A DNA stretch of 64,000 bases from Candidatus Woesearchaeota archaeon (GCA_018303185.1 JAGVYR010000066.1:29553-93552), one strand, 5' to 3'; counted from the stretch's first letter, positions 19,073 to 34,209 are shown. The notes: a model not told the origin generated them from the sequence alone. Numbers and translations: made by a program.

Positions 19073-20932
19073 CTAAACCTTTAATATTACTGCGCCATTG
19101 TTCTGCGTAACCGGGGAAAACAGCCCTGATTCCGCAATATCATTCAGCTTATTGTTTGTGTTTTCCGTCCCAAACTTCTTGGCAGTCTGCCCGTCAATGA
19201 TTAAGTACTGGAAGCCGTTTTCCTTCAGCCATGCGTGGTTCTCTTCGGCGCTCTGGTTAAAGCCGATAGCCCTGTACGAGCTTATTTCATCGCACCATGC
19301 ACAAGCCTCCATATCCATTCCAATCAGCGCCCCGAAATTGTCAAAAGTGAACACGTTGGACTGCTTTGGCAGGTTCTCACGCATCCACACATAGGCGCCT
19401 ACCTCCTCTCCAGATGTCCAGAATCCCCCCGGAGACCATTGGGCTGTGTTTACCTTGTACTTTGGGATGAAAGAGGTCTGGTATATTGCGAATGCGAGCA
19501 GTAAAATTATTCCGTATGAAAAAATTTTGGCAATATTTTCATTTTTAGTGAAGGCTTTAGCGGCGGATTTCACAAAGGCTCTTATGTAATCAAAAGCCTC
19601 TGCTGCGGCCAGCGCCGTCACAAAGGCAAGCAGCATCCATGCCCTGAATGGAGAGAGCTTTATCTTGAACCTGACAGCGTTGACTGCATAGAATGCAAAA
19701 AGAAACCATATTATCATGACTGCCTTGTTGTAATTTTCTTTGTTGAAAAACGACTTGTATCCCGATATCAAAAGAATAAGCCCGAATACTGCCAGAGGAA
19801 ACAAAAATATCCCGATGCCAACTGGATTGTTTATCATGTTGCTCCCGTTATAGCATCCGCTCTTGGGGGAGCAGAGAAAATCCTGCAGGGCATAAGGCCT
19901 ATCCCCTGTCCCTCCGAGGCTGAGGACATTCGCTCCACTCTGTATATGGACGCCGCGCATTGTCTCTGCAAGTCCATGTGTATATATCATGGGGGCCCAC
20001 CATAGCGCAAATGCCAAAAAGACAGCGAGAGCCCCCGCCATGAACTCATATTTCAAAAACCTGCGCTCTACAGCAGTCCTCGTGAAAAAATAAAGCAGGA
20101 AAAAAAGGCCAAAATAAGTGCTGTGCGTCGGAGAGGAAGTGATTGTAGTCAAAATCACAATAGCCGCAATGCTCCACCACTTATTGTCTTCCCTTATCCT
20201 TTCAGCAGCGTAGAAAGAGACAAAATACAGTGTCATTGTAAATCCAAGCGCCCATATGAAATGGCTCAGGTAGGCTGGCACTGCAAAAAGGGCGAATGCG
20301 GCGAAAGCTGCTTTTCTTGAGGACTTCATAAATTCTTTCGCGAAATAGAAAAAGAATATTATGCCAAGTGAGATTATCAGGGAATTAAAAAATTTGAGGT
20401 TCCAATAGACAGAATCATTTGTCTGGTGCAGGATGCCCATCGTCATCTCATAAGTCGGAGGATAAGGGTCGAGATAATGGAATTTTATCCCGCCTCCGGA
20501 AAACAGAGTTTTTTCCTGCGCAATAAAGCTTGTTCCGATGGAATGGCTCCACGGGTCGTCATCTTCAAGGTAAGGATAGGCAAAAGAGCCTGAAAGATAC
20601 ATGTAGAATGTGGCTGCAAGCAAAACTAAGGCAATTATTGTATAGAGATTCAGCCTTACCTGCAAGCCGCCCAAGACGGGCTTTTTATTTTTTAAATCAA
20701 TGTATATTGAAAATGCAATTAATGCTATGCTAAATAATAAAAAAATCCTCCAGTCTAAGGGGATATGCAGAAGGTTTAGGAGAAGGCCGAAAGCGGGCAT
20801 TGCCGCAAGCCCTATCCCAATCCTCATTATGTGCCTTTCAAGAAAATCCTCTGATTCCTTTGCAAGCCTTGCTATGCTTCCGAACCCATAGCAGTACACG
20901 AAAAACAATATTATGCTCAGCGCAGATGCCAC
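19073..20932 (-). CDS. Polytopic membrane protein with C-terminal soluble domain; possible GT-C glycosyltransferase or polymerase
   Basis: Many TM helices, an acidic loop (YLEDDDPW), and a C-terminal soluble domain of about 150 aa. No WWDYG motif was seen. Confidence 0.3.
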   Translation of the reverse strand: MASALSIILFFVYCYGFGSIARLAKESEDFLERHIMRIGIGLAAMPAFGLLLNLLHIPLDWRIFLLFSIALIAFSIYIDLKNKKPVLGGLQVRLNLYTIIALVLLAATFYMYLSGSFAYPYLEDDDPWSHSIGTSFIAQEKTLFSGGGIKFHYLDPYPPTYEMTMGILHQTNDSVYWNLKFFNSLIISLGIIFFFYFAKEFMKSSRKAAFAAFALFAVPAYLSHFIWALGFTMTLYFVSFYAAERIREDNKWWSIAAIVILTTITSSPTHSTYFGLFFLLYFFTRTAVERRFLKYEFMAGALAVFLAFALWWAPMIYTHGLAETMRGVHIQSGANVLSLGGTGDRPYALQDFLCSPKSGCYNGSNMINNPVGIGIFLFPLAVFGLILLISGYKSFFNKENYNKAVMIIWFLFAFYAVNAVRFKIKLSPFRAWMLLAFVTALAAAEAFDYIRAFVKSAAKAFTKNENIAKIFSYGIILLLAFAIYQTSFIPKYKVNTAQWSPGGFWTSGEEVGAYVWMRENLPKQSNVFTFDNFGALIGMDMEACAWCDEISSYRAIGFNQSAEENHAWLKENGFQYLIIDGQTAKKFGTENTNNKLNDIAESGLFSPVTQNNGAVILKV

Positions 20933-24616: not shown

Positions 24617-25315
24617 ATGCAGGTCGTGATATTGTGCGGGGGAAAAGGCACGAGGCTGAGCGAGTTTACTGACAGCTTACCGAAGCCTCTTGTTGAGATA
24701 GGGAATAAGCCGATACTCCGCCACCTCATGGAGCTTTATGCGGGCCATGGCCACCGCGATTTTATACTGTGCCTTGGCTATAAGGGCGACAGGATAAAGG
24801 AGCATTTCAAAGGCAGCACCCCAAAGGACTGGAGCATAATTTTTGCCGATACCGGAGAAGACTCAAACAAGGCAGAAAGGCTGATGAGAATAAAAAACAG
24901 GATAAAAGAGGATACTTTCCTTGTATCTTACGGCGATGACCTGAGCGATGTGGACATGGATAAGCTGGTTAAATTTCACAAAAAAAATGGAAAAGTAGTT
25001 ACCCTTACTGCTGTCCCTTTGATGTCCCCTTTTGGAATCATGGAACTGAATAAAGACAATGAAGTGACGCAGTTTAAAGAAAAGCCAAAGCTCAATCACT
25101 GGATGAACGGCGGATTTTACGTCTTCAGCAGGGACATATTCAATTACCTGAAAAGCGGGCATGACCTCGAGAAAGGGGCTTTTGAAGCGCTTGCAAAGGA
25201 AAAAAAGATTGCGGCTTTCAGGCACGAGGGCTTCTGGAAAAGCATGAACACATTAAAGGATGTAATTGAGCTGAATGAGATGTTTGAACGGGGAGAGATG
25301 CCATGGATAAGATGA
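24617..25315 (+). CDS. rfbF: Glucose-1-phosphate cytidylyltransferase
   Basis: MQVVILCGGKGTRLSEFTDSLPKPLVEIGNKPILRHLMELYAGHGHRDFILCLGYKGD. Confidence 0.85.
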   Translation: MQVVILCGGKGTRLSEFTDSLPKPLVEIGNKPILRHLMELYAGHGHRDFILCLGYKGDRIKEHFKGSTPKDWSIIFADTGEDSNKAERLMRIKNRIKEDTFLVSYGDDLSDVDMDKLVKFHKKNGKVVTLTAVPLMSPFGIMELNKDNEVTQFKEKPKLNHWMNGGFYVFSRDIFNYLKSGHDLEKGAFEALAKEKKIAAFRHEGFWKSMNTLKDVIELNEMFERGEMPWIR

Positions 25316-26274
25316 GCTGGAAAGGGCTCAATGTGCTTGTCACAGGGGCTGACGGATTCATAGGCAGCCACATTGCAAAAGCGCTCATAGAAAGAGGCTC
25401 CAATGTAGTGACAATAGTGAGGGACATAAAAAAGAAAAGCAATATTGACGTTCTTGGAATAAAGGATAAGATAACTATAATCCACGGCGACCTTGTCAAT
25501 TATGCCGACTGCGAGCGCGCAATAAACGAATACGACATTGAATTTGTCTTCCATATAGCGGCCCAGGCGATAGTCGGCCCTGCCAACCGCAGCCCTCTTT
25601 CAACGTTTGAATCCAACATAAAGGGAACGTGGAACATTCTTGAGGCATGCAGGCTTTGCAAGACAGTGAAGGGCATAATTGTTGCCTCTTCTGACAAGGC
25701 ATACGGCCAGCAGAAAAAGCTGCCTTACACAGAAGAATCCCCGCTGAACGGCTATTATCCTTATGACGCATCAAAGGCATGCGCAGAGCTTCTTGCAAGA
25801 AGCTATTTCATGACCTATGCACTTCCATTGGCGATAACGAGGAATGCCAACACATACGGCCCTGCCGACATGAACATGAGCCGCATCGTTCCTGATGTCA
25901 TAACCAGCCTTTTGAAGGGCGGGCAGCCCGTGATAAGAAGCGACGGCAGCCCTGAGAGGGATTATATGTATATCAAGGATGCTATCTCTGCATATTTGAC
26001 TCTTGCTGAAAATCTCCACAGGAAAGATGTGCTCGGGCAGGCTTTTAACTTCGGAACCGGAAAACCGGTTTCTGTCCTAAGCCTCTATAATGCGATAATA
26101 AAGGCAATGGGAAAGGATACCAAGCCTAAAATTCTCGGAGAGGCAAAGAACGAGATTGACAGGCAGTATCTTGATTCTTCAAAGGCAAAAAGAGTTCTGG
26201 GATGGGAATCCGCTTACAGCCTTGAGCAGGGCCTGAAAGAGACAATAGAGTGGTACAAAAATAATACTCAATAG
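25303..26274 (+). CDS. rfbG: CDP-glucose 4,6-dehydratase
   Basis: WKGLNVLVTGADGFIGSHIAKAL..., an SDR fold, and a 13-nt overlap with rfbF. Confidence 0.8.
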   Translation: MDKMSWKGLNVLVTGADGFIGSHIAKALIERGSNVVTIVRDIKKKSNIDVLGIKDKITIIHGDLVNYADCERAINEYDIEFVFHIAAQAIVGPANRSPLSTFESNIKGTWNILEACRLCKTVKGIIVASSDKAYGQQKKLPYTEESPLNGYYPYDASKACAELLARSYFMTYALPLAITRNANTYGPADMNMSRIVPDVITSLLKGGQPVIRSDGSPERDYMYIKDAISAYLTLAENLHRKDVLGQAFNFGTGKPVSVLSLYNAIIKAMGKDTKPKILGEAKNEIDRQYLDSSKAKRVLGWESAYSLEQGLKETIEWYKNNTQ

Positions 26275-26282
26275 AGCCTATC

Positions 26283-27371
26283 ATGAAAATTCTTGTCTTG
26301 ATGAAAAGGTTCGGGGCGAACAAGGACATGGCCCTCGGGAATTTCGGCAGGCAGGTAAGGCTCTTCGAGCCGCTCGCCAAAAGGCATAAGGTGGATTTTT
26401 TCTGCCCTGATTACACAAAGAGGGAGAAGAAAGTTTTTAAAAAAAATAGCATCACTTATTTCATCGAGCCCGTATCATTTTTTTTAATTCCAAAACTTTT
26501 GGCTTCGCTGGAAAAAATAATAAAAAATAAAAAATATGATGTGATTGTCGGCACCACCGATCCTTTATTGGGAATCCTTGCAAATAAGCTGTCTAAAAAA
26601 TACAAAACAAAGTTTGTCTACGACCTTCAGGACAACTTTGAGATATATTCATCCTGCAGGATTCCGTTTGTCCGCCATCTTGACCATAAGGCTGTAAGGG
26701 AAGCCGATCTTGTGATAACTGTAAGCGATACTTTAAGGGAGTGCCTGAGAAAATACAGGAAAAAACCCATGATAACAATTCAGAACGGCATTGAAAAAGG
26801 CATCTTCAGGCCAATGGACAGGAAGAAGTGCAGGGCAGCCCTGAAACTGCCGCAGCATGGAAAAATAATCGCATATATCGGGCACATATCCAATTACAAG
26901 GGATTTGATGTTTTGTTCAAGGCATTTCAGGAGGTAAGGAAAGAAATTCCTGATACGTTTCTTTTGCTGAGCGGAAAGGTCGATTACGGTCTTGATATAA
27001 AAAAAGAAAACGTAGTTTACAGCTCCCTTCCTGAAAGGAAACAGGTTGCAATGGCAATCAATGCCGCAGATGTATGCATAATCCCCAATACCGAGAATGA
27101 ATTTTCAAAATACTGCTTCCCTTACAAGCTGCTTGAGTACATGGCATGTGATGTTCCTATTGTAGCGAGCGATATAGGGGATGTCGGCATTGTCCTGAAA
27201 AAATACGGGAATTCCCTGTTCAGGGCAGGCGGCGCTTCCGATTTGGCGGAAAAGATAAAGCTCAGCATTTCAGCCGGCAGAAAAATAAGCTATAAGAGAG
27301 AAGTCGAAAAGTTCAGATGGAATGCCCTTTCATCAAAGATGGAAAAGGCGATGCTGGACAGGAAGCTATAG
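26283..27371 (+). CDS. Family 4 (GT-B) glycosyltransferase
   Basis: KYCFPYKLLEYMACDVPIVASDIGDVG. Confidence 0.75.
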   Translation: MKILVLMKRFGANKDMALGNFGRQVRLFEPLAKRHKVDFFCPDYTKREKKVFKKNSITYFIEPVSFFLIPKLLASLEKIIKNKKYDVIVGTTDPLLGILANKLSKKYKTKFVYDLQDNFEIYSSCRIPFVRHLDHKAVREADLVITVSDTLRECLRKYRKKPMITIQNGIEKGIFRPMDRKKCRAALKLPQHGKIIAYIGHISNYKGFDVLFKAFQEVRKEIPDTFLLLSGKVDYGLDIKKENVVYSSLPERKQVAMAINAADVCIIPNTENEFSKYCFPYKLLEYMACDVPIVASDIGDVGIVLKKYGNSLFRAGGASDLAEKIKLSISAGRKISYKREVEKFRWNALSSKMEKAMLDRKL

Positions 27372-28238
27372 TGCCTTCCTGCTCCTGATATTTTCAAGCA
27401 CGCTGTAAGGTATTTTTATTTTTCCGAGAGTGAACCTGAAATTGCCGTGATGGTCATTGCCGCCGCTTTCAAGGACGTGCTTTTTTGCCGCTATGCTTTT
27501 GTAGAACTTAATCATTTCCTCATTCCCTCTTTCATCAATCTTAAGCTCCGGGCAGATGATATGGTAGGGGTAATAAGTCTCTATGCCATCGCCCCCGTTA
27601 TCAAGGAAATAATCGATAAGCTTAAGCGATTCTTTTTGCGGATAAATCCCGGGATGGGCAAGTATTGCAACGCCCCCTGCGCCATGGATTGCCTTTATCC
27701 CATCTTCTATGGAAACCCTGTCATGAGTTTCCAGAAAAGCGGGCTTTCCCACGCCTATAAGCCTGTCAAAAACATCCGCTACTGAGCTGAATTTCTCAGG
27801 GTATTTTTTCAGCAGGTATTTTGCAATGTGCGGCCTTCCAAAAGTCCCTTTGACAGCCATTTTCACATCATTAAACTCTATCTTATAGCCCATGCCCTTG
27901 AGCTTTTCTATTATCTGCTTTTTATTCTCGTCCCTTTGCGAGTTGATATGCTTGATTAAATCAGCCAGTTTTTTATTGTTAATATCTGTCAAAAGCCCTA
28001 AAACATCAATCTTGTCAAAATCAAAAAGAGGGTCATCGCAGCTCAGCTCAACTCCCGGCACTATCTCAATGCCCCTATCCTTTGCATATTCAATAGCTTT
28101 CTGCACAGATCCTATGGAATCGTGGTCAGTAATGGCAATCGCCTTAAGGCCCTGCTTCAGGGCAAGGTCCACAAGCTCCTTTGCTTCCAGCTCGCCGTCA
28201 GAAGCTACAGTATGGCACTGGAGGTCTATATGCTCCAT
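27366..28238 (-). CDS. PHP-domain metal-dependent phosphoesterase (TrpH/YciV, COG0613-like)
   Basis: MEHIDLQCHTVASDGELEAKELVDLALKQGLKAIAITDHDS. Confidence 0.8.
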   Translation of the reverse strand: MEHIDLQCHTVASDGELEAKELVDLALKQGLKAIAITDHDSIGSVQKAIEYAKDRGIEIVPGVELSCDDPLFDFDKIDVLGLLTDINNKKLADLIKHINSQRDENKKQIIEKLKGMGYKIEFNDVKMAVKGTFGRPHIAKYLLKKYPEKFSSVADVFDRLIGVGKPAFLETHDRVSIEDGIKAIHGAGGVAILAHPGIYPQKESLKLIDYFLDNGGDGIETYYPYHIICPELKIDERGNEEMIKFYKSIAAKKHVLESGGNDHHGNFRFTLGKIKIPYSVLENIRSRKAL

Positions 28239-28239
28239 C

Positions 28240-28860
28240 TTAACCTTCCAAAATCCTTATGAGCTTATCCTTGAGCTCTTCAAACCTTTCCTCAGAAAGC
28301 ACAACTTTCCTCACAGGCTTCATCTTTACGAATTCTTCCCCTGAATCATCCCTAAAAGCCTGCTTCTTCCCGAATGAGCTGTCGACCGTGTAAGGCTGCC
28401 CTATGTTTCCCCTGAAAGGGAATATCTTGATGTGAAGATGCTCTTTCTTCTCCAGCCATGTGGTGCATTTTCCATAAATGGCAACTGAAGCGGCACCATC
28501 TTTTTTCTTTGAGGCTGCTTCAAGCTTTTTCTCAGACATCATTACCTCTGTAAGCGCCCTGCTGGCCTTTGAGAATATCCTGCCGTAATTCTCGGCAAGC
28601 TTGGGATATAAATCAATCTGCGAGAAATGAGTAAGGTGCGCGAAAGGCATTATCTGTATTGTGAAATCTTCCTCGGGATTGCTTCCTGTTTTCGGGGAAA
28701 GTGTTGCAAACCATCCGTCCTTTTTGCTTCCAACCCTGCATATTATGGCTGCGCCGTATTCGGTCTTGTCTCCGACTTTAAGGGCGATTTCCCTGCATAG
28801 GTTGCATTCTTTAGACATTTTTGCTGCCTCGCTGAACAGCTTTTCAGGTTCTTTTGCCAT
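28240..28860 (-). CDS. HIT-family (histidine triad) nucleotide hydrolase/transferase
   Basis: N-terminal CNLCREI (the HIT CxxC start) and histidine triad EHLHIKIFP. Confidence 0.65.
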   Translation of the reverse strand: MAKEPEKLFSEAAKMSKECNLCREIALKVGDKTEYGAAIICRVGSKKDGWFATLSPKTGSNPEEDFTIQIMPFAHLTHFSQIDLYPKLAENYGRIFSKASRALTEVMMSEKKLEAASKKKDGAASVAIYGKCTTWLEKKEHLHIKIFPFRGNIGQPYTVDSSFGKKQAFRDDSGEEFVKMKPVRKVVLSEERFEELKDKLIRILEG

Positions 28861-28861
28861 T

Positions 28862-29950
28862 TTAATTATCCAATACTCTTATGTATTCTCCGTCTCTCAT
28901 GCCCGATATGTAGCTGTCAAAATACCCAACGACTATCCTGTTGTGTTTCCTGCCTGACTTTTCAGACACTTCCTCAACTGTGCCGCTCACTTCAATATTC
29001 TCTCCGGGATATGCAAGCATGCAGTAATCCCTTGAATAAAAGGCTACTTTATCAATTTTAATATTTTCGCACGATTTGTCTCCGGAGACAAATTTTGAGC
29101 CTGAAACAGCATAGCAGCCCGGCCTTACAATGGAATCCGCATTCGCAGAAACTTTTGCCTTTACCTTGGCGTGCCCTATTTTTTTATAGTGCTCCTGCCC
29201 CCATTTGAACCATGTCTCGCCTTCATTTTCAACTGCAAATATGACGAATAAGGTATTTTTAAAAAATCCCTCTGACTTTTTCCTGTGCATGTTCTCAATG
29301 TAGGTTTCCTTTTTATGCACCATGTGCCTGTTCCTTTTGGTGTAGAAGTGCTCCCATTCTTCATAGGTTTTCCACCTTAAATCCTTGTCCTGCGCTTTCT
29401 CAAGATATTTCATAAGCTCCCAGAATTTTTTCTTTCCGTAGACGACAATGTTTATGTCTGATATGTTCTGGGAATAATGCCCCATTAAAGTTGAATAAGT
29501 TATGCCAAAATCCCCGAGCTTAAGCCCGCTTTTCATCAAAAGAGCGGCAAATTCTGATACTGTCTTAAGATGAAAGTCCATATCTTTGGGAGGAATGCTC
29601 ATCAGCTCCCTAAGCCCGTCTCTTGGCGAGTATTCTTTTTCTATATTTTCCTTGGGAATGGCGAAGAACAATGGGCTTATGTCGTGCATGTCGCTCTTGT
29701 AGATGTAGCCGGGATAAGCCCTGATAAATGCCTTGATATACTCGCTTAATTTCTCCCTGTTTATCCACAGGTCAAGCCGGTTCATCTTCTTTCCTGAAAG
29801 GAATCTTGAAGGCAGGGCATCGCTTGAAATCCTGTCCGTGGGAATGTATTTCGGCTTTACAAGAATCCTGCCCGGAGGATGCTCATTCCCGTAGACCTGG
29901 CAGTGCATGCCCTCTTTTGTTGTGATTATTGTAGATTCGTAGAAGTGCAT
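28862..29950 (-). CDS. Pol-beta-fold nucleotidyltransferase with N-terminal extension and C-terminal OB-like barrel (paralog 1)
   Basis: NTase motif TLMGHYSQNISDINIVVYG (G-x-SDhDh). The C-terminus reads NIEVSGTVEEVSEKSGRKHNRIVVGYFD. Confidence 0.45.
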   Translation of the reverse strand: MHFYESTIITTKEGMHCQVYGNEHPPGRILVKPKYIPTDRISSDALPSRFLSGKKMNRLDLWINREKLSEYIKAFIRAYPGYIYKSDMHDISPLFFAIPKENIEKEYSPRDGLRELMSIPPKDMDFHLKTVSEFAALLMKSGLKLGDFGITYSTLMGHYSQNISDINIVVYGKKKFWELMKYLEKAQDKDLRWKTYEEWEHFYTKRNRHMVHKKETYIENMHRKKSEGFFKNTLFVIFAVENEGETWFKWGQEHYKKIGHAKVKAKVSANADSIVRPGCYAVSGSKFVSGDKSCENIKIDKVAFYSRDYCMLAYPGENIEVSGTVEEVSEKSGRKHNRIVVGYFDSYISGMRDGEYIRVLDN

Positions 29951-29951
29951 T

Positions 29952-31022
29952 TTATATCAGAGCCTTCATGTACTCTTTTTTCCCCCTGTCTGAAGTGTAA
30001 GTGTCAAAATAGCCAAGGACAAGCTGATAGTATTCCTCTTTGCCTTTTACTTTCTCAAGAAGGCCGCACGCTTCAACTTTCTCCCCTTCTTTGGCCTGCA
30101 GCGCAAAAGGCCTTGCCCACGTAACAATTCTTTTTACCGGAACTTCCTTGTGCCCTTCCAGTATTTTTGTGTTTTCAAGCTCATAGAAGCCCGGCCTTAC
30201 TATAGAATAGCGTGCATCCTTTACAGTGCCACTTATTTTCACAGTGCCGAGCGGCTCATGCTCCTCTTCCCAATTGTACCATCCCTTGCCTTCTTCAATG
30301 CAGAAAAGCGAGAATACATTTCCGTCTATGAAGCCGTCATCCCTCTTTCTTGCCATGTTCTTTGCATATTCCTGCTCGCTGTAAACTTCTGACACTATCC
30401 TGTCCCTGAAGTACCTTGCCCAGTCCTGCTCTGATTTCCACTTCAGCGCGGGATGGGAGCGCGTTTCGAGGTGCTTCACTGCCTTCCAGCCGTTTTCTAT
30501 TCCGAAAATGAGTATGTCCATGTCCGATTTCCCCGGCGTGTAATTTCCAAGCAGCGTTGAGTGGCTTATTCCCAGATTTTCATTGCTTATGCCTGCATCA
30601 TTCAGTATGCCTGTCATTTCCCTTACAGCTTTAAGGTACGGGTCCAAATCTTCAACAGGGACTTTAAGCAGCTCCTGAAAGCCTTTTTTTGTATCATAGA
30701 ATTTCTCCACCTTGCCTTCAGGCACCCCTAAAAACCAGTTCCTGTGTTTTTTGCATTCGTATATGTAGTATGGGAATTTTTTCCTTATTGCTGCAAGATT
30801 TTTCTCGACAGATTCCTTTTTGTTGAAAAGATTAAAGCGGAACATGCACTTTCCGAAAAGAAACCTCTTTTTGAGGCCTACGAGGTCCAGAGTGCCGCAT
30901 GGTATGTACTTCGGCTTCGCTATAATGAACCCCTTAGGATGCGAAGAGCTGTACACCTTGAACTGTATGCCGTCAGCTGAGTCTATCAATGCCGCCTCAT
31001 AGTATTTTCCCACATCTTCCAC
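29952..31022 (-). CDS. Pol-beta-fold nucleotidyltransferase, paralog 2 of 28862..29950
   Basis: STLLGNYTPGKSDMDILIFG. It is colinear with paralog 1 throughout (VYSSSHPKGFIIAKPKYIP vs VYGNEHPPGRILVKPKYIP). Confidence 0.45.
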   Translation of the reverse strand: MEDVGKYYEAALIDSADGIQFKVYSSSHPKGFIIAKPKYIPCGTLDLVGLKKRFLFGKCMFRFNLFNKKESVEKNLAAIRKKFPYYIYECKKHRNWFLGVPEGKVEKFYDTKKGFQELLKVPVEDLDPYLKAVREMTGILNDAGISNENLGISHSTLLGNYTPGKSDMDILIFGIENGWKAVKHLETRSHPALKWKSEQDWARYFRDRIVSEVYSEQEYAKNMARKRDDGFIDGNVFSLFCIEEGKGWYNWEEEHEPLGTVKISGTVKDARYSIVRPGFYELENTKILEGHKEVPVKRIVTWARPFALQAKEGEKVEACGLLEKVKGKEEYYQLVLGYFDTYTSDRGKKEYMKALI

Positions 31023-31143
31023 CCAAAATGCCCTTATTAAGCAATAAAAAGGTTTTTAAAAACGTATAAAAACATTGTGTTTTATAGGGCTTAATCGAAG
31101 GAGAGTAACAACAGCCAGAAAGGGGGGGTTTTCACAATAAAAC

Positions 31144-31198
31144 CGCGAGGCGAGCGTTATGCATGAGAGCGAGCCTCGCGACAACCATTGCGGAGCGG
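31144..31198. repeat. GC-rich 55-nt hairpin repeat, copy A (copy B at 58476..58530)
   Basis: cgcgaggcgagcgttatgcatgagagcgagcctcgcgacaaccattgcggagcgg. About 90% identical to copy B, with an 8-bp stem cgcgaggc/gcctcgcg. Confidence 0.6.
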
Positions 31199-31296
31199 AT
31201 TGACAATAAAAATAACGAAAAACCAATAAGAAAAACAATAAAACAAATCAACACAAAAATATCCTAAAATAATAAATAAACAAAAGCAAAAATCTT

Positions 31297-31836
31297 ATGG
31301 AAAACAGACAAAGCTGGACTCTTTGGTTCATTGGGCTGCACGGCTCCGGAAAGACAACAATATCCTCAAGGATAGCTGATATCCTAAGGAAAAAAGGCAT
31401 GGAAATTGTGCTGCTTGACGGCGATGAAGTCAGGAAAAGCATATCCTCGGATTTGGGATACAGCTTAGAGGACAGGAATATCCACATGCAGCGTGTTGCT
31501 GACCTATGCAGCCGCCTCAATAATGAAGGAAAGATGGTGATTGCCGCAGTTGCCTCCCCAACAGAAAAGTCAAGGGACTATGCAAAAAAGGCGATAAAAA
31601 ACTTCTTCACAGTGTATGTAAAATGCCCGCTGGAAATCTGCGAGAAGAGGGATGTAAAGGGCCACTATAAGAAAGCCCGCCTTGGAGAGAAGGGATTCGA
31701 GCATTTTCTCGGCATAGGCATCAGGTTTGAGGAGCCGAAGAATCCTGACATAGTGCTTGAGACTTCAAAATATGCAGTGGAAGAATGCGTTGGTGTGCTT
31801 CTTGGGAAGATGAAGGAGAGAAATATTCTTCGGTAA
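31297..31836 (+). CDS. cysC: Adenylylsulfate (APS) kinase
   Basis: LWFIGLHGSGKTTISSRIADILRKKGMEIVLLDGDEVRKSISSDLGYSLEDRNIHMQRVADL...CEKRDVKGHYKKARLGE. Confidence 0.85.
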   Translation: MENRQSWTLWFIGLHGSGKTTISSRIADILRKKGMEIVLLDGDEVRKSISSDLGYSLEDRNIHMQRVADLCSRLNNEGKMVIAAVASPTEKSRDYAKKAIKNFFTVYVKCPLEICEKRDVKGHYKKARLGEKGFEHFLGIGIRFEEPKNPDIVLETSKYAVEECVGVLLGKMKERNILR

Positions 31837-32440
31837 ACCATTGGAAAACCAGTTGGCAATAAAATAACTATTCAGGGCATAGGGCTAAAGTTACATACCG
31901 TGGATAGTGAAGATTTCTTCCTGTTTACAGATGATGAGAGAGTTATGAAGAAGCCGCCTTATATGACGTATTACGGGGCTGAACACGATATAACAGTCTA
32001 CAATAATCCAAAAATATACGTTCAACAAAAAATAATAGAAATAAATGGGACCGTTATAAATTGTAAACGAGAAGATGATGGAAAATATTGCATAAATGCT
32101 GAATCAATTAAAATTTTAAACGAATTTGCAAATGCTTAGATACAATAGTTTTTTACAATTAATTGTCAAAAGCATTAATCACTATTTTTGGCTTAGATTT
32201 CCAGTATACAAACGCTTGATGGTGAGGTTTATTTTCAAAAGCTTTTGTTGTTTTATTTACATTAAAATAATCACATACGTGAATCGATAAACCAAGTCCT
32301 TTTGTAAATTGTCTCAAATCAATCAAAAATTTACATGATAAAGGAGTTTAATAAATTTAGGTCTTTAGCTTAAGAAACCACAATCTTTATATATAAGATA
32401 GTCTTACTAATAAGATATTCTTATCAAGGAGGCGAACAAA

Positions 32441-32698
32441 ATGGAAAAATTGGAAATAACAAGTATGAGTTCAAGAGGGCAGGTAGTTATTCCTTTAGAC
32501 ATTAGAGAACAGCTTGGATTAAAGGAAGGTGAGAAATTTGTTGTTGTTGGAGAAGATGATACAGTTATCTTGAAAAAAGTAACCATGCCTTCCTTCAAAA
32601 ACTTTGATAAATTAATTCAAAGAACACAGCAGTTTGCAAAAGAAAAAGGAATAACTCCAGTCGATGTTAAGAGTGCCATAAAGAGAGCTAGAAAATGA
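32441..32698 (+). CDS. AbrB/SpoVT-family antitoxin
   Basis: SSRGQVVIPLDIREQLGLKEGEKFVVV (swapped-hairpin barrel motif). Confidence 0.7.
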   Translation: MEKLEITSMSSRGQVVIPLDIREQLGLKEGEKFVVVGEDDTVILKKVTMPSFKNFDKLIQRTQQFAKEKGITPVDVKSAIKRARK

Positions 32699-33096
32699 AA
32701 GTAGTTCTTGACACAAATATATTTATTTCTGGAATCTTTTGGAAAGGTAGTTCCAACAAAGTTATAACTAATTGGAGAGAAGAAAAATTTACACTGGTTA
32801 CTTCTTTAGAAGCAATTTCAGAAATAATAAAAGTCCTCAAAGATTTTAAAATCAAGCTTTCAGATGAAATGATTAAAGAATGGGTTGATTTGATTGTAAG
32901 AAATTCTATGATTGTAGATCCAAAAGAAAAAATTGAGGCAGTTAAAGATGATCCAAAAGACAATATTTTCATTGAAACTGCTGTAGTTGGAAATGCGGAC
33001 TATATTATTTCGCAGGATAATCATTTGTTAAAATTAAAGGATTTCGGAGGAATTAAAATAATCACACCTGAAGAATTCGACAAAATATGTAACTGA
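32695..33096 (+). CDS. PIN-domain (VapC-like) toxin
   Basis: MKVVLDTNIFISGIF..., with a 4-nt ATGA overlap with the antitoxin gene. Confidence 0.7.
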   Translation: MKVVLDTNIFISGIFWKGSSNKVITNWREEKFTLVTSLEAISEIIKVLKDFKIKLSDEMIKEWVDLIVRNSMIVDPKEKIEAVKDDPKDNIFIETAVVGNADYIISQDNHLLKLKDFGGIKIITPEEFDKICN

Positions 33097-33369: not shown

Positions 33370-34209
33370 ATGGTGGAATCAGTAAAAGAATTGAGGAAAA
33401 TCTGCTATAAAGACTCCGGAAAGAAAAGGCCGCTCTACATGGAGCTGGTTACCATGAAATTCTCCATATACGTGACCAAGCTGTCCCTTTACACTCCTAT
33501 TGGCGCTGACCAGGTTTCCATGCTGATGATACTGCTTACGTTTATAGGGGCGGGCATGATTGCTTTCGGTAATCTCTGGTGGATGCTTGCCGGCATTTTA
33601 ATCGCGCATTTCACGATAGTGCTTGACAATGTAAACGGAGAGGTCGCAAGATACAGGAAGGAAGGCAGCCTCATAGGAACGTATCTTGAGGAAGTCTACC
33701 ACTCTGTCGCGGAGCCTCTTGTATTCTTCGCTTTCGGTTACGGAATATTCAGGAACACAGGATGGGAATCTGCAATACTGTTCGGATTCATCTGCTCCCT
33801 GTTCGTCCCGCCAATAATAATATCCTCAATAAAAAATGCTGTCGTAAAAAAGGGGATAGACCGATTAGAGAGCAGGGAAGGCATGCTGCCTAAAAAATAC
33901 ACTTTGCTCAATGAAAAGATAAACCTGAAGGGCGGAAGCACAAGAGCAGGATCAAAATTCTATGCCCTTTACGGCAAAATCAACGAGCTGTGGGGCTTTC
34001 CTTTCAATTTTGTGCACATAAACATAATCATAGCGCTGGAGATAATAAACCTCAGCTACAGCGTCATCCCTGAATTTTACCTTTCTTTTGGCTATATAGC
34101 AGCTTACGGAACTGCCAATTTCATCATACAAATCGCTTCCTTCATAGTGCATTACAAGGGAAGGACAATTTTCCACTACTACAACGCCCTGTTCGGCAAC
34201 AAGAAGTAA
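33370..34209 (+). CDS. Membrane protein with degenerate CDP-alcohol phosphatidyltransferase-like motif
   Basis: DNVNGEVARYRKEGSLIGTYLEE resembles D-x2-DG-x2-AR...G...D...D, but the last acidic residues are replaced. Confidence 0.35.
   Translation: MVESVKELRKICYKDSGKKRPLYMELVTMKFSIYVTKLSLYTPIGADQVSMLMILLTFIGAGMIAFGNLWWMLAGILIAHFTIVLDNVNGEVARYRKEGSLIGTYLEEVYHSVAEPLVFFAFGYGIFRNTGWESAILFGFICSLFVPPIIISSIKNAVVKKGIDRLESREGMLPKKYTLLNEKINLKGGSTRAGSKFYALYGKINELWGFPFNFVHINIIIALEIINLSYSVIPEFYLSFGYIAAYGTANFIIQIASFIVHYKGRTIFHYYNALFGNKK

Follow-up and report, generated by a model that had tools for sequence, protein, structure and literature searches.

What task could join two nucleotidyltransferases, a HIT-fold protein and a PHP phosphoesterase in a single operon within an archaeal glycan-biosynthesis island? 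The question is raised by positions 27366-31022 of a 64,000-nucleotide stretch from a Candidatus Woesearchaeota archaeon (GCA_018303185.1 JAGVYR010000066.1:29553-93552; hereafter the window), where an initial annotation had noticed a tight four-gene minus-strand operon and compared it with RNA-end repair, with second-messenger systems such as CBASS (cyclic oligonucleotide-based antiphage signaling) and with sulfonucleotide turnover. We consider it probable that this module supplies adenylyl-sulfate (APS), its two nucleotidyltransferases (NT-A and NT-B) and its HIT protein, together called the trio, acting as a non-homologous analogue of ATP sulfurylase (Sat) in the synthesis and recycling of 3'-phosphoadenosine 5'-phosphosulfate (PAPS) for glycan sulfation. 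For the broader proposal that the trio is a third, unrelated class of sulfate-activating enzyme, made of a Pol-beta heterodimer and a HIT carrier with an HxHxK motif and used by many DPANN archaea for sulfated surface glycans, we see the chances as evenly balanced, and how work might be relayed within the trio is much less certain than the supply of APS itself.

The listing of open reading frames (ORFs) confirms the operon as first described: exactly four minus-strand ORFs are packed in tandem across the interval, with gaps of 1 nt each at 29951, 28861 and 28239, and the 3' end of the last overlaps a convergent GT4 glycosyltransferase gene by 6 nt. They encode NT-A, a Pol-beta-type nucleotidyltransferase (29952-31022; 356 aa from a GTG start, or 353 aa from the start three codons in that public gene callers choose), its paralog NT-B (28862-29950, 362 aa), a HIT-fold, putatively adenylyl-transferring protein recognized by its fold and HxHxK motif (28240-28860, 206 aa) and a PHP phosphoesterase of the TrpH/YciV/Cv1693 family (27366-28238, 290 aa; PF02811). 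Divergent from NT-A, on the plus strand, lies a gene for APS kinase (adenylyl-sulfate kinase; 31297-31836), identified by both Pfam (PF01583, 158.7 bits) and the equivalog-domain model TIGR00455 (175.7 bits, cutoff 138.7). This kinase is a functional partner of the operon; in many species it lies within it, in the order NT-NT-HIT-PHP-APS kinase, translationally coupled and with 4-nt overlaps.

The case for APS supply begins with what occupies the position beside the kinase. From the kinase side, we sampled five DPANN-type loci (loci are numbered with the prefix L) that carry close homologs of the window APS kinase. In a Woesearchaeote (L160) and in L162 the order is NTP-transferase, short-chain dehydrogenase/reductase (SDR), GT4, pyruvate kinase, Sat (PUA_2 plus ATP-sulfurylase domains), APS kinase, (PHP), the membrane protein Memb278, flippase, SDR, NTP-transferase and UDP-glucose dehydrogenase. 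The frame is unchanged in L161 and L164/L165 except that NT-A, NT-B, HIT, (HAD) and PHP stand in the position of Sat, and in L163 the trio and PHP diverge from the kinase, as they do in the window. The slot in these sampled orthologous glycan clusters holds Sat or the trio, never both. On either side, the window genes share 46-80% identity with their counterparts in L160 and L162. The left frame, all on the plus strand, comprises an NTP-transferase (24617-25315), an SDR/4,6-dehydratase-like protein (25303-26274) and the GT4 glycosyltransferase (26283-27371); its orthologs in the two Sat-type loci keep the order at 51-79% identity, and in the trio-type L164 the order is matched by Pfam content and gene size alone, without a blastp check. 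The trio finds no match in L160 or L162, and Sat none in the window or L161; one marine sample contains both a Sat-type (L162) and a trio-type (L165) locus. Because Sat and the trio are exchanged within orthologous flanks, we interpret the swap as non-orthologous gene displacement in situ. The trio has no Pfam match to Sat and lacks its QxRNPxHxxH and GRDHAG motifs and its PUA_2 domain, so we treat it as an analogue of Sat rather than a member of that family.

Searches across a larger set agree with this exclusivity. With a DPANN Sat as query (phmmer, E<=1e-3) no Sat homolog was detected in 76 trio-bearing sources (75 loci plus the window, 1.2 Mb), and a motif scan detected no Sat or CysN motif in the same 1.2 Mb, these searches covering each locus with its 10-kb flanks. 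As a control set we took generic APS kinases, at most 46% identical, from a metagenome scan with the DPANN APS kinase alignment: among the matches listed, control loci of at least 6 kb had Sat or CysN nearby in 27 of 39 cases and an NT or HIT gene in 0 of 39. Some control loci combine Pfam-confirmed Sat with other partners of the cassette, in the arrangements PDE-APSK-Sat, RHH-Sat-PDE-APSK-PDE and Sat-APSK-PHP (APSK, APS kinase; PDE, a PF01663 'Phosphodiest' protein; RHH, a small ribbon-helix-helix protein).

The alternation also bears on a different account of the operon, in which the trio would make or edit another activated glycan precursor (an NDP-sugar or phospho-alcohol donor, or an O-adenylylation and its removal) and APS would come from Sat or CysDN elsewhere, the trio being neighbour to PAPS genes solely through their shared service to glycan decoration. 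GalT-type HIT proteins, inositol monophosphatase-like (IMPase) enzymes and HAD phosphatases do also serve sugar-nucleotide pathways, and next to the operon lie numerous sugar genes and the gene of a CDP-alcohol-transferase-like membrane protein. APS kinase is missing from the 10-kb flanks of more than half of the loci, and DPANN genomes can encode Sat (PMC8091004). Such an account, however, leaves unexplained both the alternation of Sat and the trio upstream of APS kinase in orthologous clusters and the fusions of APS kinase to PHP and to CysQ in the phosphatase slot, and the sugar nucleotidyltransferases of known pathways have a different fold; we judge it unlikely.

To see how general the arrangement is, a homolog scan was reduced to one genome per species, giving 65 loci, and gene content was counted in the 49 species-level DPANN loci with at least 3 kb downstream. 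Two or more NT genes are present in 47 of the 49, HIT in 45 (48 if the prolyl-tRNA synthetase (ProRS) paralog that fills the HIT slot in three more is included), a phosphatase in 48 (PHP 36, HD 9, IMPase 4, HAD 2) and glycan-synthesis genes in 45. APS kinase lies within or next to the operon in 20/49 loci, a PF01663 protein occurs in 26, Memb278 in 17, a sulfatase in eight and a PF03567 sulfotransferase in four. NT-B is fused to HIT in seven loci (L013, L014, L023, L027, L030, L033 and L065), five of which are within the 49, and NT-B~HIT~HAD, PDE~NT-A and PDE~HD~NT-A fusions are found as well. Because this gene order is met again in some 50 genomes at species level, the four-gene set is not a chance neighbourhood. 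The initial annotation had allowed that the four families might routinely occur apart; instead they co-occur strongly, and the glycan setting that it noticed extends from a ~40-kb island here to 45 of the 49 loci. Named homologs of the operon proteins come from Woesearchaeota, Nanoarchaeota, Pacearchaeota and Diapherotrites, which marks the window as DPANN DNA, and proteins identical to the operon products are present on groundwater metagenome contigs.

Such constant embedding among glycan genes tells against the two other analogies drawn at the outset, RNA-end repair or processing and a CBASS-like second-messenger defence, in which the nucleotidyltransferases would modify RNA 3' ends or produce signalling nucleotides and HIT and PHP would serve in processing or degradation. 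There are grounds for considering them: the OB fold of the nucleotidyltransferases resembles nucleic-acid-binding OB domains, relatives of the PHP protein include the 5'-3' exoribonuclease RNase AM, and aprataxin exemplifies HIT enzymes that repair adenylylated ends of nucleic acids. But PADLOC has no match for NT-A, NT-B or HIT and gives only weak, partial ones for PHP (PDC-M49A, E 6e-4, over 85 residues of a 681-position model; ZorE2, E 0.013), and the operon has neither ligase, kinase, effector or sensor partner genes of such systems nor the combination of a CD-NTase with an effector. The loci are moreover linked to APS kinase, CysQ, sulfotransferase and sulfatase genes and swap with Sat, and the CysQ-like IMPase found in the phosphatase slot is not an RNA enzyme. 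We rejected both readings on context and consider them highly improbable.

The phosphatase slot ties the operon more closely to sulfonucleotides. The PHP protein is the sole operon product to pass a curated model, scoring 52.9 bits with PF02811 (cutoff 26.4), and it has the PHP domain with an N-terminus, D-L-Q-C-H-T, in which Cys replaces the usual first His of H-x-H. Its best NCBIfam match is the 3',5'-nucleoside bisphosphate phosphatase NF041577, at 145 bits against an equivalog cutoff of 400, with 138 bits, again under the equivalog cutoff, for the RNase RNM model; its relatives in the PDB are RNase AM (YciV/TrpH, 7UG9), Cv1693 (2YB1) and 3E0F, at E values of 1e-22 to 1e-24. Cv1693, which has a mechanism in common with RNase AM, has been crystallised with its products, AMP and Pi (PMC9410882). 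Four unrelated superfamilies fill the slot: PHP, HD, CysQ-like IMPase and HAD. Of these, PHP proteins of the Cv1693 type and CysQ are known phosphatases of 3'-phosphoadenosine 5'-phosphate (pAp) (PMC9410882, PMC8268124), and pAp is known to inhibit sulfotransferases and XRN-type nucleases (PMC8268124). PHP is fused to APS kinase in L040 and L058, and CysQ-like IMPase is fused to APS kinase in both domain orders. Because of the PHP~APSK fusion and the presence of a CysQ-like IMPase in the same slot, the PHP protein is predicted to be a pAp 3'-phosphatase, though it may have an RNase AM-like activity. Taken together, the adjacent APS kinase, the fusions of APS kinase to PHP and CysQ, the sulfotransferase and sulfatase neighbours and the alternation with Sat lead us to favour a sulfonucleotide role; of the analogies first raised, they support only the third.

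What, then, could the trio contribute? NT-A and NT-B are 33% identical over their full length (E 6e-78). An AlphaFold model of NT-A on the family alignment is confident (pLDDT 92.5); the protein begins with a beta domain and ends with an OB fold, and the minimal alpha-beta-alpha-beta-alpha-beta nucleotidyltransferase core is present. NT-A has the Pol-beta hG[GS]...[DE]h[DE]h motif as G151-I-S-H-S...S166-D167-M-D169 and a third carboxylate in the invariant E243; the DxD is kept in all A-position orthologs with a readable motif, mean column identity is 61%, and by its motifs NT-A is the catalytically intact paralog. NT-B reads S-D-I-N, with Asn for the second metal-binding Asp, and thus has the Pol-beta motif only in part. 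Because D-x-N is found in every species with a readable motif, that is, in all such NT-B orthologs, NT-B is a conserved degenerate partner, probably a non-catalytic or scaffold subunit. The two nucleotidyltransferases have no match to a curated family (NTP_transf_2 reaches only E 0.16 and 12.8 bits against a cutoff of 21, and NCBIfam has none), characterised housekeeping families included, and no sequence relative in the PDB, profile search included.

The 206-aa protein likewise has no HIT, DcpS or GalT-family match by sequence in Pfam, NCBIfam or the PDB, and a single UniRef entry names a homolog of it 'HIT domain-containing'. Its AlphaFold model on the family alignment is confident (pLDDT 85.5) and has the HIT alpha+beta fold, with Ap4A phosphorylase as the nearest structure; all four fold assignments of the initial annotation are borne out. 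The sequence H141-L-H143-I-K145-I-F (HxHxK) retains the first two His of the HIT motif H-phi-H-phi-H-phi-phi, and at the third position, His or Gln in HIT proteins, a Lys is invariant in 52/52 domains. C19-x-x-C22 and H75 precede this motif and resemble a GalT-type Zn site; C19, C22, H75, H141, H143 and K145 are all invariant or nearly so across these 52 domains from ~50 species. Only fold and partial motifs place the trio in the Pol-beta and HIT superfamilies, and no curated family includes it. In L007 (12147-12803, minus strand), L028, L029 and L023 the HIT gene has a divergent paralog beside it; this second copy lies on the opposite strand in three of these four loci and retains the CxxC...H...HxHxK residues.

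In four diverse lineages the HIT slot is taken by a ProRS paralog (L043 12174-13484, L062 6222-7721, L066 11061-12308 and L072 6823-8202), scoring 293-426 bits against the TIGR00408 cutoff of 437, with matches mostly to the catalytic domain in three of the four. L066 and L072 have a single NT, NT-B and HIT both being missing. These observations touch on whether HIT might by itself be the sulfate adenylyltransferase, ADP-sulfurylase-like or ATP-dependent and working through a His143-AMP intermediate, with NT-A and NT-B as accessories outside the catalysis itself, for example in regulatory AMPylation, in provision of an improved AMP donor such as Ap4A or in channelling. The closeness of the HIT model to Ap4A phosphorylase would suit this alternative, as would the fact that HIT is the sole fold of the trio with known sulfate adenylyl-transfer chemistry, and the class II aminoacyl-tRNA synthetase paralog that replaces it in four loci while NT-A is kept is capable of forming adenylates or Ap4A. 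Yet NT-A, with its 61% mean column identity and invariant DxD, is the most constant component, the NT-B~HIT and PDE~HD~NT-A fusions speak for a single complex in catalysis, and L066 and L072 retain a single NT without HIT. We think it quite improbable that HIT acts alone.

Under the preferred reading, in which the whole trio supplies APS, gene order, folds, motifs, fusions and the Sat/trio alternation are observed, and from them we infer which reaction takes place, which nucleotide is the donor and how the three proteins share the work. The trio would make APS from an adenine nucleotide and sulfate, and the divergently encoded APS kinase would convert APS to PAPS. A sulfotransferase would then transfer the sulfuryl group from PAPS to a glycan or lipid, the candidates being Memb278, the one conserved candidate in the window, and, elsewhere, PF03567 or PF01663 proteins, and PHP, or its HD, CysQ or HAD substitute, would remove the 3'-phosphate from the inhibitory by-product pAp to give AMP. 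Within the trio, a possible relay has NT-A, with its intact DxD metal site, take AMP from ATP; NT-B (DxN) would serve as a structural partner that docks HIT, a role suggested by the NT-B~HIT fusions; and His143 of the HIT protein (HxHxK) would hold AMP covalently and hand it to sulfate. This last step is modelled on the half-reaction of HIT-family Ap4A phosphorylase/ADP-sulfurylase (EC 2.7.7.5). The HIT-family enzymes Apa1 and Apa2 have sulfate adenylyltransferase (ADP) activity.

The pathway of Sat, CysC and a pAp phosphatase is already known, and the new part is the trio. Sat (PF14306 PUA_2 plus PF01747) takes the same slot beside APS kinase, its clusters have the same partners as trio clusters (a winged-helix pyruvate kinase upstream; PHP, Memb278 and flippase downstream) and the predicted net reaction is the same, but there is no relation of sequence or fold, the trio consisting of two Pol-beta nucleotidyltransferases with OB folds and one HIT-fold protein. 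CysDN resembles the proposed trio as a multi-subunit system of sulfate activation in which a second subunit assists an unfavourable adenylyl transfer; it differs in its unrelated folds (a PAPS-reductase-like ATP pyrophosphatase and a GTPase), and the trio has no GTPase. The HIT protein has no sequence-level match to GalT or to the HIT Ap4A phosphorylases/ADP-sulfurylases (yeast Apa1/Apa2, EC 2.7.7.53 and 2.7.7.5; Mycobacterium tuberculosis Rv2613c, PDB 3ANO), and it differs from all of them in the invariant Lys of HxHxK at the His/Gln position and in consisting of one 206-aa domain with helices at both termini, always paired and sometimes fused with a Pol-beta nucleotidyltransferase. Like the trio, the glutamine synthetase adenylyltransferase GlnE has two paralogous Pol-beta modules, one domain adding AMP from ATP and the other removing AMP to phosphate with formation of ADP, which is a formal precedent for the relay. 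GlnE acts on a protein tyrosine, however, and both of its domains keep their catalytic carboxylates, whereas NT-B has DxN; the homology seen is confined to the superfamily core, and by this comparison the anion-transfer step in the trio would more plausibly fall to HIT than to NT-B.

Several points weigh against APS synthesis by the trio. We know of no Pol-beta nucleotidyltransferase that uses an inorganic oxyanion as acceptor, and the evidence for the proposed reaction is, throughout, genomic. Three proteins for one enzyme are unparsimonious, and a need for NT-A and NT-B beside a HIT enzyme is unexplained. APS kinase is found within 10 kb in only 20 of the 49 loci, PDE (PF01663)-type loci being often without one nearby, and the displacement sample taken from the kinase side is small (five loci). 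The ProRS paralog in the HIT slot is not predicted by our reading, though it fits a slot for an adenylate-forming enzyme. Among the trio loci, L028 and L031 each have a match to the short CysD motif S[GF]GKDS in a ~370-aa ORF. Other types of acceptor in the wider family are suggested by the OB fold and by distant homologs that lie near CitG and ATP-grasp genes in cofactor islands. Finally, DPANN genomes can carry Sat, as L160 and L162 do, and sulfate adenylyltransferase was annotated in all hydrothermal DPANN metagenome-assembled genomes of one study (PMC8091004).

All biological sulfation, and assimilatory sulfate reduction too, begins with the activation of sulfate. To our knowledge only two types of sulfate-activating enzyme, Sat and CysDN, have been recognized, and our survey of the open-access literature (alternative ATP sulfurylases, combinations of HIT, nucleotidyltransferase and archaea, and DPANN sulfation) found no description of the trio system, in keeping with the first impression that the combination was new. 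If the proposal is right, the trio would be a new enzyme class with new chemistry for both the Pol-beta and HIT superfamilies, and the first Pol-beta nucleotidyltransferase system with an inorganic anion as final acceptor. Three families now annotated as hypothetical would gain a function, and metabolic reconstructions that score these DPANN genomes as being without sulfate activation would need correcting. It would also suggest that sulfated glycans are widespread on DPANN cell surfaces, which bears on the host attachment of these ultra-small symbionts. The comparison of loci also flags further partners of PAPS synthesis, namely the PF01663 enzyme, the CDP-alcohol-transferase-like membrane protein and the small RHH regulator.

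The membrane protein, Memb278 (33370-34209, plus strand; 279 aa, multi-pass), is a degenerate relative of CDP-alcohol phosphatidyltransferases, with the motif D-N-V-N-G-E-V-A-R; it has no Pfam match and a weak NCBIfam match to archaetidylinositol phosphate synthase. It comes after APS kinase in both Sat-type and trio-type clusters (it is present in L015, L016, L018 and L160-L164 as well as here) and may be a membrane-bound user of PAPS or activated sulfate. The cytoplasmic PF01663 'Phosphodiest' protein, of the alkaline-phosphatase superfamily, appears outside DPANN in PDE-APSK-Sat operons on contigs of 50-69% GC (PF01663 loci L083, L089, L148, L103, L084 and L123) and among DPANN in L007, L020-L041 and others. 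In roughly half of the DPANN loci it is encoded beside the NT genes or fused to them, frequently behind a small RHH protein, and, tightly linked as it is to PAPS synthesis, it might be a new type of sulfotransferase. The window has no recognisable cytosolic sulfotransferase, sulfatase or PF01663 gene. Archaeal PF03567 sulfotransferases, those of Woesearchaeota and Pacearchaeota included, are uncharacterised according to a review (PMC11625862).

The glycan-biosynthesis island that surrounds the operon (window positions 1-41000) contains several DegT aminotransferases, NeuB, GT2 and GT4 transferases, two flippases, a UDP-glucose dehydrogenase and a 619-aa protein without a Pfam match (19073-20932). 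In the spacer that separates the divergent NT-A and APS kinase genes (31023-31296), read from the sequence, AT-rich TATA-like boxes (TTTTTAAAAA / TTTATTGC) lie ~30 nt upstream of the NT-A start and are a candidate NT-A promoter; a scan for sigma-70 promoters and terminators gave only background, the sigma-70 model not being relevant to archaea. A 79-aa ORF (31900-32139) just 3' of the APS kinase gene is called as a gene too on the near-identical contigs L002 and L004-L006 and belongs to no assigned family. Between APS kinase and Memb278 lies a toxin-antitoxin pair, a MazE/AbrB-type antitoxin (32441-32698) and a PIN toxin (32695-33096), in the stretch of lowest GC in the window (0.359). Because related loci run directly from APS kinase or PHP into Memb278, this pair looks inserted.

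A pyruvate kinase gene lies directly upstream of Sat or NT-A in L160 (5179-6858), L162 (5145-6863), L161 (2037-3464), L011 (1445-2839) and L015-L017, with a winged-helix domain at the N-terminus of its product in L161 and L011 at least, and it may regenerate ATP for sulfate activation.

The wider nucleotidyltransferase family comprises 901 clusters at 50% identity, with distant single-copy homologs in Thermoproteota, Korarchaeota and Methanococcus. In Vulcanisaeta (L076, 8001-9089) the homolog gene overlaps a CitG-like gene amid ATP-grasp, MfnB, Fae, Ftr, Mch and Fwd genes, a context that suggests a part in making the cofactors methanopterin or methanofuran, and another distant homolog adjoins genes for carbon monoxide dehydrogenase/acetyl-CoA synthase. 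Because single-copy homologs sit in these tetrahydromethanopterin/methanofuran and carbon monoxide dehydrogenase settings, the acceptor of the ancestral enzyme was probably not sulfate. Distant homologs are found in L078 and in L079, where three nucleotidyltransferase paralogs lie beside an ATP-grasp_3 gene.

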